From the NCBI GenBank assembly GCA_038063755.1, contig JBBTUL010000001.1:1-61237 (forward strand): a DNA stretch of 61,237 nt. Direction: 5' to 3'. Below, piece by piece: positions 3,179 to 33,392 of this stretch. Origin of the DNA: Patescibacteria group bacterium (lineage in GTDB: Bacteria > Patescibacteriota > Minisyncoccia > UBA6257 > 2-01-FULL-56-20). The notes beneath the pieces were generated by a model. That model made no database searches, was not told the origin of the DNA, and saw nothing but the letters and a program-made list of their open reading frames with translations. Position 1 is the first letter of the stretch. Every line of letters starts with the position of its first letter. The position numbers and the translations under genes are program-made.

Positions 3179-3526
3179 TTAATTGACACTAATAATAGCT
3201 GCAAACCCGAGGAAAAGCAAGGTGCCGAGAAAGAATGACCAGACGGCGGCAAGATTGGCAAGAAACAAAGCTCTTTTCTCCAGAGTATTCGCCACGAGGA
3301 GGTTTATCGAAAGCATGACGAGACCAAAAACGCCAAAAAGCTCAAGCTCGATAAGTGATCCAATTTTTGTGATGCCATCATAGTTGTTGAATTGAAGAAT
3401 GATCGGAGACACTGTGGAACGAAAAGAGGCATAAGCCCAGGCCATTCCGAGAATAACGAGGAGGAAGCTCATTCCAAAAAAGATATTGCGCCATCCGATA
3501 TGGCGATATGGTAGCACTATACTCAT
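3179..3526 (-). CDS. Hypothetical membrane protein (3 TM)
   Basis: Three hydrophobic segments; tightly packed between galT and rplU. Confidence 0.8.
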   Translation of the reverse strand: MSIVLPYRHIGWRNIFFGMSFLLVILGMAWAYASFRSTVSPIILQFNNYDGITKIGSLIELELFGVFGLVMLSINLLVANTLEKRALFLANLAAVWSFFLGTLLFLGFAAIISVN

Positions 3527-16640: not shown

Positions 16641-18119
16641 CTATCTCCTATCTTTCGGAGTTACCCAAAAACCAAGTCTGAATTTTCCTCCAAGCATAAG
16701 ACGGGTCTGCGCCTCGAGTCCGGGAAATGCACCGAAAATAATGAGCGTAATCGGGATGAAAATCCACTCAACAACATAGAGCGCGTAGTGACGCATGCGG
16801 AACCACTTTGGTTTCGGCGGTAAAAGAACGACGCTCATAATAGCCGAAGTCGCGACCCCAACCATTGAAAGACCGATCACGAAACGAGTGATGCGCGGAA
16901 GGCTGTACGAGAGAAGTGACGCGCCGAAGGCCATTCCTCCGAGCGCGACCGGAAGCCAGCCGAGCGCAAAAATCATAAGCGAGTTCGTCGCCCAGGAGTG
17001 GTACCCCTCAAGCACGGTGAACGTCCAAAAGATCTTCCTTCGTGTCGAAATTTTTTTGCTTTTGCGAAGACCGTCCAAAAGGTACGGCACGTTTTCCGAT
17101 CCCCATCCCCATCTTCGCTGTTGCAAATAAAGATTTTTCATCGTCCCCCAAAATGTCGGCGCAACATTCGCGTCCATCGAAACAGGATATTCAAGCGGCA
17201 CAACCTTGAAATCTCCTTCGTAATGCAAAAAACATTGCCAAAATATTCGTGAATCCTCTGAAACCATGTCGGTGTGCCAATACCCGACATCCAAAAGCGC
17301 GGTGAAGGGAATTGATTGCGAAGAAAATGAAGTAAGGCGCTCAGGACGAGCCTGCTGCATCATCTGCCAGAATGTTGCGGAAAAAGATACCACTCGGGCG
17401 AGCGCGGGAGCCTGAAACACGTTGTTGGTGAAAAACGGAACGGGCTGATAGATGGCTCGCAGACGATCTGGTGTGTCAAGAAAAAGATAGGTAAGTCGTC
17501 CAAAATATTCCGAGAAAACTTGAGTGTCAATATCAAAAACCGAAACCAAAATATCTTCGTACGGAATATGGCGCGCATCCACGATTTCTTTCTTTGCCTG
17601 TTTTATCGCCCATGTTTCGTTTGCCCCTTTTCCGGCAAGCTCTCCAGAGATATCTCCAGGGTGATTTGTTACAAGAAAGCTTCCAAACTTCTCGCCGAAT
17701 TCCTTCTTTATCCTCTCGCCGACCGTTCGCGCCGCCTCCCCCGCTCTCTCCTCAAGGGCAAGTACGACATGAAGCTTCTCCTTCGGATAGTTTCCTTGAA
17801 GAATCCTTGAGAAGCTATCCAGAACAACCTCGTATGGCTCCTTATACATAGGGAAGAGTACGAGGTGCTGAACTCGGCCCCAATCCCCTTCAAATCGCTC
17901 GTTGAGTCGCAAAAGCCAGTTTTCACTCATATTTCTCTTCATTGCAAGAAACGCGACGCGTAGATGAAAAGAAAGGTAAATAGTCTTGAGAAGCCAATAG
18001 ACATCAAAAAGAATAATGAAAACCGAAACCGCAGCAGGCAGTTTCCACGAAAAAACCACCATGAGGATGAGGGTTGTCCACGCAAGCGCTCCTGGAAGAA
18101 TTTCGAAAAACCGATACAT
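16641..18119 (-). CDS. Glycosyltransferase family 2 membrane protein (cellulose-synthase-like)
   Basis: LAGKGAN, DID (DxD), SEDS, QQRRW (QxxRW) motifs with flanking TMs. Confidence 0.9.
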   Translation of the reverse strand: MYRFFEILPGALAWTTLILMVVFSWKLPAAVSVFIILFDVYWLLKTIYLSFHLRVAFLAMKRNMSENWLLRLNERFEGDWGRVQHLVLFPMYKEPYEVVLDSFSRILQGNYPKEKLHVVLALEERAGEAARTVGERIKKEFGEKFGSFLVTNHPGDISGELAGKGANETWAIKQAKKEIVDARHIPYEDILVSVFDIDTQVFSEYFGRLTYLFLDTPDRLRAIYQPVPFFTNNVFQAPALARVVSFSATFWQMMQQARPERLTSFSSQSIPFTALLDVGYWHTDMVSEDSRIFWQCFLHYEGDFKVVPLEYPVSMDANVAPTFWGTMKNLYLQQRRWGWGSENVPYLLDGLRKSKKISTRRKIFWTFTVLEGYHSWATNSLMIFALGWLPVALGGMAFGASLLSYSLPRITRFVIGLSMVGVATSAIMSVVLLPPKPKWFRMRHYALYVVEWIFIPITLIIFGAFPGLEAQTRLMLGGKFRLGFWVTPKDRR

Positions 18120-18154: not shown

Positions 18155-18550
18155 CTACCACAGAAAAGCATCTACGGCATACGATCCTCCGCCAAGCGAA
18201 AGGATTGCAAGGGCAGTTGCGAAAATGAAAATATCAAGCTCGTAGCCTCCGACAAACGAATCTCCCTTCTTGATTTTCCAAATGAGAATCACGAGGAATT
18301 GAACGACAAGGAGTGCCGCTAGAGCCTGTGAAAGAAAACCGAGAATAAGAGCGATTCCTCCAAAAAACTCGAGAAGTGTCACCACAACCGCCCAAAACAT
18401 TCCGGGCTTGAATCCTTCAGATGCAAACCAGGCTCCCGTTCCCCGAATGTTTTTTAGCTTCGGAATTCCATGTATCGCAAGAACTAGCCCGAGAGCGATA
18501 CGAAGTGCTAAAAGCCCCCAGTCGTCCCAAATGTATAGAAGTGGAAACAT
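18155..18550 (-). CDS. DoxX family membrane protein
   Basis: LLALRIALG...HGIPKL, EFFGGIALILG, GGGSYAVD. Start moved to ATG 18550. Confidence 0.9.
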   Translation of the reverse strand: MFPLLYIWDDWGLLALRIALGLVLAIHGIPKLKNIRGTGAWFASEGFKPGMFWAVVVTLLEFFGGIALILGFLSQALAALLVVQFLVILIWKIKKGDSFVGGYELDIFIFATALAILSLGGGSYAVDAFLW

Positions 18551-18683
18551 AATCGTTTTATTTGTTAATTTTGCGGCTTCGATGCAAGCCTTTTGTGAAG
18601 TATAGCACGGACCAGCAATTTTAACTCCCGGTAAAAATTTCCGTACTGTATGTACGGAAAGAACAAGCTTCGTGCTTGCGCAT

Positions 18684-18759
18684 GGCTCCATCGTCTAATA
18701 GTTAGGACGGCGCTCTTTTCCGCAGAAGGCGGATTTTCCTCTGGAGGACACGGCGGAAC
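18684..18759 (+). pseudogene. Degenerate 5' fragment of a tRNA-Glu with two palindromes inserted in the anticodon loop
   Basis: GGCTCCATCGTCTA...TAGGAC..CGCTCTTT[30 nt]CACGGCGG aligns to the tRNA at 19008; no T-arm or 3' acceptor. Confidence 0.65.
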
Positions 18760-18768
18760 CATTATGTG

Positions 18769-19032
18769 TAACTCTATATCCTAAAAAGCGTTTTGTTTGC
18801 CAGGTATTATATCGGCATCACTGCCAACCAAAAGGAGAGGCTTGATAAACACAACGCCAGTGAAGTAAGATCTACCAAGGCATACTCTCCATGGAGGCTT
18901 GTATATAAAGAAGGATTTTCAGAAAGAACCTCTGCTCGGAAACGAGAGATATTTCTGAAAAGAACTGCTCGAGCAAGAAAAGAGCTTTTTGAAAGAATCG
19001 AGAAAATGCCGCCATCGTCTAGCCTGGCCTAG
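18769..19032 (+). pseudogene. Small GIY-YIG nuclease gene with a disrupted start
   Basis: In-frame LYILKS...RYYIGIT...ERLDKHN...E...ARKRE..LK is preceded by GTG-TAA; the TTG ORF at 18793 lacks the first YIL strand. Confidence 0.7.
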
Positions 19033-19082
19033 GACATCGCCCTTTCACGGCGGGAACACCGGTTCAAATCCGGTTGGCGGTA
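19008..19082 (+). tRNA. tRNA-Glu(TTC)
   Basis: Cloverleaf: GCCGCCA/TGGCGGT acceptor, loop CTTTCAC, GGTTCAAATCC; CCA not encoded. Confidence 0.95.
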
Positions 19083-19127
19083 CAAATATCGTTTTGGTCT
19101 AGTCGAAGTGTGTGCTATAAAAAATAT

Positions 19128-19784
19128 ATGGTCCCGCGAAAAATTGAGCGATTCGGAAAACCGGAAGAAGGTGCCGTTTTTGAGGAACGCGAAGGTGGCG
19201 TAAAGGTTTTCAAAGTACCAGCCGAAACCGTCCAGGCTGACCTGAACAAAGATCAAGAACGAGGCCGACGAGTTCATCTAGCAATCGCCGAGGCGAAAAA
19301 AGTCCGCGACGAAAGAAAGGAGATTGCCGCATATATGGATGCGGCTCGAGGCTTTTTGGAAGCGAAATTCAACGTCAACAATCTTACAACGAGCGAGGGA
19401 GTTGAACTTCGAAAAGAAGTGGAGCGACAAGTTGCGAGGTACAACGAGCAAGAAAAATCGCGAGATAGAAACGTCGCGGGAACGGGATGGGAGATTACCA
19501 ACCCTTCAGTGGAGGCGGCTTATCTTTGGCTTCAAAATCTTTACGGCATAACCCCAGAGACCGTAAAAACTTTTTACAACTATTACTTTTGGGACGGTGG
19601 AGAGGGATTGCTTTACGAATTTAAGAGTGAAGAAGATCGGAACAGAAAGCACAGCGAATATCTCGCGAACATAAAAGAAGATCGTGCCGTGGGGTGCCTG
19701 AGATACAACGCCCCATCAAGCGCATTTGAAGAGCATTTAAGAAAAATGCGGGCAAGCGCGCACACCCCAGAGGCGGATGTGTAG
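19128..19784 (+). CDS. Hypothetical protein
   Basis: Charged ORF; start moved from inside the tRNA to ATG 19128. Confidence 0.75.
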   Translation: MVPRKIERFGKPEEGAVFEEREGGVKVFKVPAETVQADLNKDQERGRRVHLAIAEAKKVRDERKEIAAYMDAARGFLEAKFNVNNLTTSEGVELRKEVERQVARYNEQEKSRDRNVAGTGWEITNPSVEAAYLWLQNLYGITPETVKTFYNYYFWDGGEGLLYEFKSEEDRNRKHSEYLANIKEDRAVGCLRYNAPSSAFEEHLRKMRASAHTPEADV

Positions 19785-32909: not shown

Positions 32910-32950
32910 TATATCACAAGACCACCCACGCGGTGGTTTTGTGATATATA
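32910..32950 (+). terminator. Long hairpin immediately after tRNA-Pro
   Basis: TATATCACAAGACCACC / GGTGGTTTTGTGATATA, 17-bp stem with one G-U. Confidence 0.7.
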
Positions 32951-33392
32951 TCTCGCTGGGAATCGAACAAGCGGAAGGGGTCGGGGAACCGCGACCGGTT
33001 CCCCGTGTCGGAGGTTATTCGGAACCGAGGGTTTCGAAAAGCGATTCTGAGTTTTCCGAAGAATCGCGGGTGAGATAGCGAAGCGTCCCGGCGGCCCGAC
33101 ATTAGAAGTTGGATTATCGAGCAAAGCGAGATTAACAACTCTTATGTCCCGACTCCGGTCGGGACTAGAGAAAGTCTTCGAGCAAAGCGAGTTAGAGTTT
33201 CTTGTGTCCCGTCTGAGCGAAGCGACAGCGGGACAGTAGAATCTTCGAGCGAAGCGTCCCGGCGGCCCGACATTAGACTGTGTTGAGCGGAGCGCTTACA
33301 GAATCTTATGCCCCGTCGGCAGGCGGGGCGGTAGCGATCTTAGTGAGCAAAGCGAGCTTTAGAATTTCTTATGCCCCGACAGACGTCGGGGC
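32951..33392. repeat. Cluster of tRNA-derived and REP-like palindromic repeats
   Basis: 30-bp exact direct repeat (33077-33106, 33248-33277), six GAGC(A/G)(A/G)AGCG motifs, four TCTT(A/G)TG(T/C)CCC-hairpin units. Confidence 0.85.

Follow-up and report, generated by a model that had tools for sequence, protein, structure and literature searches.

Tyrosine-integrase elements of phages and integrative and conjugative elements (ICEs) are kilobases long, encode their own recombinase, and duplicate the 3′ part of the transfer RNA (tRNA) gene they enter. REP/RAYT and IS200/IS605 elements follow another route, using HUH (Y1) transposases and dispersing genome-wide. The GIY-YIG nucleases have a tRNA connection of their own in phage T4, where SegB, a free-standing GIY-YIG homing endonuclease, is encoded within the tRNA gene cluster (PMC2330249). 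In cells, the minimal UPF0213/YhbQ or “prokaryotic Slx1” branch of the same superfamily was treated by Dunin-Horkawicz et al. in 2006 as a set of vertically inherited repair or RNA-metabolism proteins, and their article mentions no tRNA-gene linkage, hairpins or target duplications for this family (PMC1564403). Here we describe a locus from a Patescibacteria group bacterium (GenBank assembly GCA_038063755.1, contig JBBTUL010000001.1) that can be set beside each of these systems. Within the 61,237 nucleotides (nt) of DNA that were analysed, hereafter the window, a broken GIY-YIG gene lies between a partial tRNA-Glu interrupted by hairpins and a complete tRNA-Glu, and the whole of 18684–19083 is probably an old, inactivated and decayed copy of a selfish cassette that invades tRNA genes.

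We rank SegB as the nearest described system. In both cases a GIY-YIG gene sits among or next to tRNA genes, its inheritance is tied to theirs, it is polymorphic for presence and absence, and neighbouring tRNA sequence appears to have been co-converted with it. SegB differs, however, in being a multi-domain, site-specific phage enzyme that cuts the genome of a rival lacking the nuclease (PMC2330249), whereas the cassette encodes a bare catalytic domain of ~85 amino acids (aa), resides in cellular chromosomes, has an open reading frame (ORF) that ends inside a tRNA with a hairpin-capped partial tRNA ahead of it, and keeps an intact, target-like tRNA. The UPF0213/YhbQ proteins (PMC1564403) share the same minimal stand-alone domain and are the best matches of solved structure; a sequence search of the PDB returned matches limited to two of them, 1YWL and 1ZG2, and the similarity is weak (E = 5e-3). 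With REP/RAYT and IS200/IS605 the cassette has in common short GC-rich hairpins kept as structure beside one small nuclease gene, and a model of action on folded single-stranded DNA is plausible for it too; yet its sole ORF is a GIY-YIG nuclease instead of an HUH (Y1) transposase, and its hairpins are confined to the loops of tRNA copies by the nuclease gene. Like the tRNA-targeting integrative elements, it is inserted into a tRNA gene, a choice of site that in those elements includes the anticodon loop, and a functional tRNA is kept by partial duplication; unlike them, it is a unit of ~400 bp with a single ORF and no recombinase, and it is the 5′ part of the tRNA that is duplicated. I-TevI-type intron endonucleases and bacterial tRNA group I introns resemble it in joining a GIY-YIG gene to an interrupted anticodon loop, whereas here both a ribozyme and a 3′ exon past the insert are missing, and the nuclease lacks the DNA-binding domain of I-TevI. 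Full-text literature searches turned up no account of stand-alone GIY-YIG genes that are fused to a tRNA and accompanied by tRNA fragments capped with hairpins. What is new here is the survey of empty sites on a host tree, the distinction between resident and incoming tRNA, the dN/dS estimates, and the covariation in the Glu-type hairpins.

A preliminary description of this DNA, made from its letters alone, had reported a GIY-YIG gene sandwiched between a tRNA-Glu fragment and an intact tRNA-Glu, with an overlap of 25 nt between gene and tRNA, and all of these elements are in place (coordinates in Table 1), the intact tRNA being called by ARAGORN and Rfam and the gene matched by the PF01541 profile. 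The orphan fragment covers the 5′ strand of the acceptor, the D-arm, the 5′ strand of the anticodon stem and the loop bases CTTT; after the hairpins the tRNA resumes for a short continuation that ends ahead of the T-arm, and the orphan has no T-arm. This continuation is closer to the intact tRNA (CACGGCGGGAAC) than to the type found in relatives (CACGGCGTAAAT), a stretch too short to decide between them. The complete tRNA-Glu lies 325 nt downstream of the orphan, and through the overlap its first nucleotides encode both the C-terminus and the stop codon of the nuclease. An Rfam search of 18400–19300, with E values up to 10 accepted, reported the intact tRNA alone; the fragment matched neither an intron or ribozyme nor any other family. 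No convincing internal promoter was found.

The two tRNA-Glu sequences that flank the gene are of different types. Aligned to the adjacent intact tRNA, the orphan has 27 matching positions and a 3-nt gap, for a score of 25; dinucleotide shuffles score 14.3 ± 2.4 and reach 25 in three of 2000 cases, as do three of 1918 other chunks of the window. Against the syntenic tRNA-Glu of a relative (L133) the orphan is identical at 32 of 35 positions without a gap, and its 14 best matches are, without exception, relatives whose syntenic site is empty. The nearest relatives on the host-proxy tree carry at this locus a tRNA-Glu with a short D-loop (GGCCTCATCGTCTAATGGYTAGGACGGCGCCCTTTCACGGCG...), which is also the type of the orphan. 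The intact tRNA of the window is instead of a long-D-loop type (TAGCCTGGCCTAG), differs from the resident type in both acceptor stem and T-arm, and has no close relative in the set, its nearest matches agreeing at 62–64 of 75 nt. Downstream of it, a search for the 3′ part of the resident tRNA gave a score below those of shuffles. The nuclease ORF has a GC content of 39.3%, compared with 48.9 ± 3.9% for the window, which puts it in the lowest 1% of 244-nt windows. These comparisons show the orphan to be the remnant of the resident tRNA-Glu and the working tRNA a newcomer of another type. Because the two types differ in this way, and because the ORF is low in GC, the cassette must have come from outside and is not a local duplication, and the foreign DNA that displaced the resident gene probably included a whole tRNA-Glu.

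A search for empty tRNA-Glu sites in relatives had already been proposed in the preliminary description. Because the gene downstream of the locus (19128–19781) has no relatives in the genome contig collection that was searched, synteny was drawn from the glycosyltransferase gene on the other side, whose orthologues were surveyed in 80 genomes at 53–69% identity. A tRNA-Glu(UUC) lies less than 1.5 kb from the glycosyltransferase in 56 of the 80. It is clean in 51 relatives, with no GIY-YIG gene, no tRNA fragment (scores of 12–20, as in the null) and no hairpin motif, except for a scar in one of them (L138). The cassette is present in five relatives (L081, L082, L115, L140 and L142), which together with the window makes six filled sites among 57 orthologous ones, and the tRNA stands ~350–400 nt farther from the glycosyltransferase in the window and in those three of the five filled relatives that share the window’s orientation. 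One more locus (L127) has the ORF, but no tRNA is called there. The filled state takes five changes on the glycosyltransferase tree, at least four of them forced by well-supported branches, and several filled loci have an empty sister; this host proxy is a tree of one neighbouring gene, and the relatives are all distant, with no more than 69% identity in that gene and 66% in the nuclease. The pattern of presence at the locus shows that several independent gains or losses were needed.

The tRNA-Glu genes at the syntenic site (L081–L160) have some peculiarities of their own. They flip between the short-D-loop type (73 nt) and the long-D-loop type (76–78 nt) even among close relatives, and some are mosaics that have the anticodon arm alone in common, as in L126 compared with L142 and L155. 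The flipping suggests frequent replacement of the tRNA gene, perhaps by way of cassettes that were later lost. The scar in L138 lies ~20–45 nt upstream of its tRNA-Glu (locus ~3470–3500, minus strand) and consists of GGTCTCGTC followed by the hairpin TCCGCCTGCCGGCGGA, with no ORF; GGTCTCGTC is the 5′ start of the tRNA type found in relative L126, and the adjoining tRNA-Glu is of the other type. In the window tRNA (19008/19082) and most of the L081–L160 tRNA-Glu genes (GGCCTCA...TGGGGCT-A), the first acceptor pair is G1-U72 and not G1-C72.

Beyond this one site, the layout is that of a family: a 30-nt double hairpin, then a single-domain GIY-YIG gene without a stop codon of its own, then a complete tRNA that supplies the stop in its D-loop. 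The protein homologues (21 sequences at 48–66% identity, from Kaiserbacteria, Harrisonbacteria and other Patescibacteria) all end, where they reach their C-terminus, in GPIV*, PSSSL(V/A)* or SSSNG*, which are the 5′ end of tRNA-Glu translated in different frames. The preliminary description had also called for a survey of GIY-YIG genes and the tRNA sequences around them, and had staked its reading on the fragment outdoing shuffled controls, as it does above, and on a tRNA association of the homologous nucleases. Among 80 homologous loci, 425 kb in total, a tRNA on the same strand starts less than 200 nt from the end of the match in 65, and the stop codon of the ORF lies inside the tRNA in 46. 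Of 64 loci, 55 have a copy of the downstream tRNA less than 300 nt upstream of the ORF, nearly always starting at nt 1 or 2, with scores of 27–129 compared with ~15 ± 2.5 elsewhere in the same loci. The nearest homologous loci are at tRNA-Glu, and more distant ones are at Met or Ala (in Flavobacteriaceae), Ser, Arg, Tyr, Ile, Cys, Leu and Gln; the family partners with at least 10 tRNA species. Partner identity clusters on the ORF tree, the Glu label taking nine changes compared with 21 when shuffled (0 of 500 shuffles), although this tree is poorly resolved, its 79 columns being too short to resolve transfers. When loci of unrelated genomes are compared by blastn, similarity is restricted to islands of ~360–440 nt, stretching from orphan to tRNA end, with unrelated flanks, which shows that the cassette is a discrete unit of ~400 bp.

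Several loci depart from the simple layout in ways that we read, from their arrangement, as intermediate stages and as the remnants of reinvasion and tandem insertion. In L004 (3316–3400) and L055 (3310–3465) the resident tRNA is split around a unit made of the ORF and an intact tRNA: directly behind the intact tRNA comes a 5′-truncated tRNA-Glu that begins TAGGAC, has hairpins in its anticodon loop and a complete 3′ half, and matches the upstream orphan in its acceptor strand, so that a block of anticodon arm plus hairpins is directly repeated on either side of the unit. In L115/L001, 70 nt from the end of an older ORF stand in front of the orphan, in a duplication that also takes in tRNA nt 1–38. 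L051 (Kapabacteria chromosome OY762428.1, 2858–3684) holds two ORF copies in tandem, 367 nt apart; each is followed by a class-II tRNA-like gene of ~91 nt that ARAGORN calls “tRNA-Cys”.

The family also leaves traces in annotation. Gene callers extend these ORFs into the tRNAs and sometimes through the upstream tRNA fragment, as in homologue P0018, whose N-terminal “extension” resembles the fragment in translation. Over-long tRNA calls occur beside cassettes, namely a 93-nt “tRNA-Gln(CUG)” in L010 (1943–2035) and a 96-nt tRNA-Arg(UCU) in L043 (2871–2966), which probably contain the hairpin insert (in L043, 20 nt after nt 39); as these calls illustrate, tRNA finders can report hairpin-bearing copies as genes. 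Two contigs of Hadarchaeota metagenome-assembled genomes (L067 and L078) hold homologous GIY-YIG ORFs without an adjoining tRNA call, and these could be mis-binned or could represent a real archaeal branch.

In 15 of the 18 homologous tRNA-Glu cassettes extracted, the insert is exactly 30 nt long, placed between anticodon nt 35 and 36, and made of two 15-nt hairpins with the consensus TCCGCCnnnGGCGGA and TCCTCCnnnGGAGGA. Among 14 distinct inserts, 98.8% of the cells pair, and five of the 12 pairs have changed on both sides, giving stems such as CCGCC/GGCGG, CCTCC/GGAGG, CCGGC/GCCGG and CCACC/GGTGG and an outer pair that goes from T-A to C-G; none of 500 shuffles reaches the observed level, and slid controls stay at or below 59%. 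The aligned inserts thus show selection on the hairpins to have acted, as judged from their covariation, on structure. Taken over all tRNA types, insert sizes are quantised at 30 nt or 18–20 nt, and the inserts follow nt ~12 or nt ~20 or lie between nt 35 and 36 of the anticodon, with T-loop cases in L028 and L142. Beyond the hairpins the tRNA continues for 8–16 nt in the homologous cassettes, as it does in the window, and the density of the strict hairpin motif over the 160 nt that precede the ORF is 84 times that in the remaining sequence of the loci. In a fresh copy (L001), the anticodon stem and the two hairpins fold as a three-way junction with a z-score of −3.5. The window insert has kept the 30-nt length and has acquired three stem-weakening substitutions (z-score −1.3), and the window fragment folds no better than shuffles, whether treated as RNA or as DNA. 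A Shine-Dalgarno/anti-Shine-Dalgarno role for the hairpins was considered and rejected: their order and sequence vary, and some pairs are without GGAGG.

These comparisons change part of what had been said of the insert and of its kin. The palindromes had been located correctly inside the anticodon, yet the insert is composed of two 15-nt hairpins, and the 12-nt palindrome noted earlier is the second of them in decayed form. The further suggestion that small GIY-YIG nucleases mobilise the palindromic repeats of the window finds no support. Cassette hairpin sequences recur nowhere else in the window, where a structural regular expression returned a few unrelated hairpins; TCCGCAGAAGGCGGA has four matches at three or fewer mismatches compared with 2.35 expected, and TCCTCTGGAGGA has loose matches only. 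The repeats at sodA, at valS and after tRNA-Pro belong to sequence families other than the cassette hairpins, and the sole GIY-YIG gene of the window is the broken copy.

The protein encoded by the cassette is a clear member of its family. The ORF matches PF01541 at 48.7 bits (cut-off 22.6; E = 9.7e-13) over profile positions 5–76 of 78. The two catalytic tyrosines, the arginine and the glutamate are present: LYIL and YYIG, together with R in ERLDKHN and E in RKREIFLK, fall on columns Y5, Y16, G18, R26 and E62, which are invariant or nearly so among 22 homologues. Setting aside gene-caller extensions, the homologues are 79–98 aa long, a minimal stand-alone domain, and Pfam finds nothing beyond the ~78-residue catalytic domain and no DNA-recognition module. 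NCBIfam has no family for the window ORF; PADLOC reports no defence family for it or for homologue P0006, and a marginal UzuA match (E = 0.0055) for homologue P0007; PHROGs gives a marginal match to a GIY-YIG homing endonuclease and nothing else. Selection among the intact homologues is strongly purifying (dN/dS of 0.04–0.18, syntenic pairs included), from which we take the intact proteins to be working ones and not just homing genes in decay. Intact homologues occur in cultured strains such as Pedobacter helvus P-25 (L068), Pontimicrobium aquaticum CAU 1491 (L032) and Spongiivirga sp. MCCC 1A20706 (L029). Decay is frequent in the family, premature stops being present in five of the 80 homologous ORFs.

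In the window the frame is broken upstream of the first catalytic tyrosine. Homologues begin ATG-x-x-CTC/CTT-TAT-AT(C/T), that is, M-x-x-L-Y-I-L-K-S, whereas the window reads ATG TGT AA- CTC TAT ATC CTA AAA, with the ATG at 18764, a disruption at codons 2–3, and a TAA in the conserved frame at 18769–18771. Given this ATG and the N-termini of the homologues, the lesion would most simply be a 1-nt deletion in codon 3, and hence a frameshift; the other possibility is a GTG start with the nonsense codon TAA directly after it. The latter is how the start was spelled out in the preliminary description, which had pointed to 18772–18774, positions that form the CTC codon. All 11 invariant residues of the family are kept in the window copy, and for this reason the inactivation is likely to be recent relative to the age of the cassette. 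We also followed the suggestion that the lesion be checked against reads, using Logan assembler contigs from six sequencing runs (X1, X2, X3, X5, X6 and X7), which each cover part of 18550–19040 and jointly span it with zero differences and no indels. Because the contigs of all six agree, the lesion is not an assembly error of the window. Neither an empty nor an unbroken allele of the source population, nor any joint, is seen in these contigs, which are not raw reads and omit rare variants.

The comparative patterns bear out the earlier idea of a minimal tRNA-targeting mobile unit, now inactivated; from them we infer mobility, and likewise that the nuclease does the cutting. In the mechanism that we propose, the cassette would arrive on foreign DNA, and recombination induced by a break or a nick would copy it into a tRNA-Glu gene. 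The cassette’s own structure-specific nuclease would make this break or nick, within the anticodon loop of the tRNA gene or next to it, and the flanking tRNA sequence, orphan to the left of the nuclease gene and complete tRNA to its right, would provide homology for repair from the cassette-bearing donor. The hairpins together with the anticodon stem would form a three-way junction that marks and neutralises the disrupted copy, and that may be the structure the nuclease recognises. Since a whole tRNA would be left or brought by the cassette, the host would survive. Because the ORF overlaps the tRNA and probably shares the old tRNA promoter, from which the two would be co-transcribed, the cassette would be hard to lose except through a precise exchange between the two 5′ copies of the tRNA, which would remove it cleanly.

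Several observations weigh against this account. None of cleavage, excision or transfer has been seen, and in the contigs of the six runs the allele is always filled and broken. Because an intact tRNA persists at the filled site, simple homing, in which insertion destroys the target, fails. A nuclease of 85 aa without a DNA-binding domain makes sequence-specific recognition of a tRNA gene hard to see. The 3′ half of the intact tRNA is non-resident too and no resident 3′ remnant follows it, so a clean crossover at nt 35/36 leaves the right-hand junction unexplained. Purifying selection in syntenic, vertically inherited pairs would also fit a gene useful to the host; the direct repeats allow easy and precise loss, which may account for some of the patchiness. 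The comparisons revealed no recent transfers: the nearest cassette is at 63–66% protein identity, and the phage and plasmid collections hold no relative of the cassette. Because the intact target stays, the recognition domain is missing, the right junction does not fit and selection is purifying, we hold the specific step in which the cassette’s own nuclease cuts tRNA genes as tentative and, on present evidence, doubtful. Bolder, and in our judgement rather unlikely, is the idea that the cassettes are a new class of autonomous mobile DNA, possibly the smallest, at ~350–400 bp with no transposase or recombinase, in which the unit enters tRNA-gene loops (in the window between anticodon nt 35 and 36), its hairpins turn the tRNA arm into a three-way junction for the nuclease to recognise and cut, and it brings or restores a complete replacement tRNA that contains its own stop codon. 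An essential gene would then be interlocked with the parasite, both physically and in transcription, in a kind of “tRNA addiction”. If this were true, the frequent swapping of tRNA-Glu types among close relatives would be explained.

Two rival explanations deserve weight. The unit could be mobile by means other than homing, its GC-rich hairpins serving as active ends in the fashion of REP/RAYT or IS200/IS605, so that an Slx1-like nuclease cuts single-stranded hairpin/tRNA-loop junctions and pastes the unit into tRNA loops; the tRNA duplications would then be by-products, for example of staggered-cut fill-in around the three-way junction. Such ends would fit hairpins that are kept as structure and not as sequence, whose sizes are fixed at 19 and 30 nt and whose positions are confined to D-, anticodon- and T-loops, as well as the direct repeat of anticodon arm plus hairpins around the ORF and tRNA in L004/L055. 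They would also suit a nuclease that falls in the structure-specific Slx1 cluster (PMC1564403) and has no DNA-binding domain for recognising sequence. Yet the unit contains no partner for ligation or recombination, the motif is essentially absent outside cassettes and absent elsewhere in the window, and the right-hand hairpin end is missing from most loci, the window included. GIY-YIG enzymes are not known to rejoin DNA, and we consider this explanation unlikely. The gene might instead not be mobile at all but be a nuclease linked to tRNA genes and retained by the host, acting on structures or R-loops at busy tRNA genes or on tRNA transcripts, and co-transcribed with the tRNA, in which case fragments and hairpins would be scars of recombination. 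The strong purifying selection, with syntenic pairs retained over dS of 0.06–1.5, speaks for this, as do the constant position and strand relative to the tRNA over several phyla, the lack of examples in phages or plasmids, and a known fusion of the subfamily to a TrmH-like tRNA methyltransferase, which hints at RNA metabolism (PMC1564403). A host gene, however, would hardly occupy just six of the 57 orthologous tRNA-Glu sites, dispersed over the tree, be dispensable enough to be broken in the window and in five of 80 homologues, or take at least 10 tRNA species as partners; the foreign GC of the ORF, the orphan of resident type beside a working tRNA of foreign type, and the tandem copies also count against it, and we regard it as quite improbable.

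That the locus is the remnant of a conventional element with an integrase attachment (att) site, or of a tRNA intron with its homing endonuclease, would agree with the standing of tRNA genes as classic integration sites and with the occurrence of bacterial tRNA introns in anticodon loops. It is very unlikely, however: the duplicated part is the 5′ and not the 3′ end of the tRNA, the ~400-bp unit holds no recombinase, T-arm and 3′ exon are both missing from the fragment, the insert is at nt 35/36 and not 37/38, Rfam finds no intron or ribozyme, and the same compact layout recurs in more than 50 loci. A tRNA intron, a split tRNA and an integrase att site were all considered and rejected. Finally, the resemblance could be a chance one beside an ordinary small gene, or an artefact of assembly, given that the score against the adjacent tRNA is moderately significant (3 of 2000 shuffles) and that the window copy folds no better than shuffles; the match at 32 of 35 positions to the tRNA-Glu of relatives, the same design in dozens of loci, and the identical contigs of six runs make this scarcely credible.

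Should the reading as a tRNA-invading selfish cassette be true, the small “GIY-YIG nuclease family protein” that is very common in Patescibacteria, Bacteroidota, Ignavibacteriota and further phyla would be no repair enzyme but the engine, or else the passenger, of a selfish cassette specialised on tRNA genes. The reading would then account for the orphan fragments of tRNAs, the pseudo-tRNAs filled with hairpins and the tandem repeats linked to tRNAs in these genomes. It would provide a route for the replacement and horizontal exchange of tRNA genes, and a minimal system of nuclease plus DNA structure in which to study target recognition. The placing of a protein’s stop codon in a tRNA would be an unusual overlap that bears on how tRNA processing and translation are coupled. 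The window itself would be a natural experiment, in which the incoming tRNA remains distinguishable from the displaced half of the resident one.

Table 1. Coordinates of the cassette copy and of the neighbouring gene used for synteny, in window positions.
Feature	Position	Strand	Remarks
Orphan 5′ part of tRNA-Glu, nt 1–35	18684–18718	+	GGCTCCATCGTCTAATAGTTAGGACGGCGCTCTTT, GGCTCC...CTCTTT
Double hairpin insert, 30 nt	18719–18748	+	between anticodon nt 35 and 36 (CTTT/insert/CAC)
First 15-nt hairpin	18719–18733	+	TCCGCAGAAGGCGGA
Second 15-nt hairpin	18734–18748	+	TTTTCCTCTGGAGGA
Continuation of tRNA-Glu, nt 36 to ~47	18749–18760	+	CACGGCGGAACC: loop CAC, 3′ strand of anticodon stem, AAC
Stand-alone GIY-YIG nuclease gene, ~85 codons, Slx1/UPF0213 type	18764–19032	+	5′ end broken
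Conserved GIY-YIG frame	18772–19029	+	stop TAG at 19030–19032, inside the tRNA D-loop
Intact tRNA-Glu(UUC)	19008–19083	+	ARAGORN; Rfam RF00005, 54 bits
Neighbouring glycosyltransferase gene	16644–18119	−	source of the synteny comparison

A separate, non-coding element of ~170–190 nt was observed at the 3′ end of tRNAs. In the window it lies after tRNA-Pro, at 32910–33100, and the same design follows tRNA-Glu in three cassette loci (L041, 3310–3500; L042, 3296–3490; L054, 3310–3505). Near its left end the element carries an inverted copy of the T-arm, and it has a terminal 15-nt direct repeat of the tRNA 3′ end. Several further loci have a copy of the tRNA 3′ end 150–240 nt downstream.

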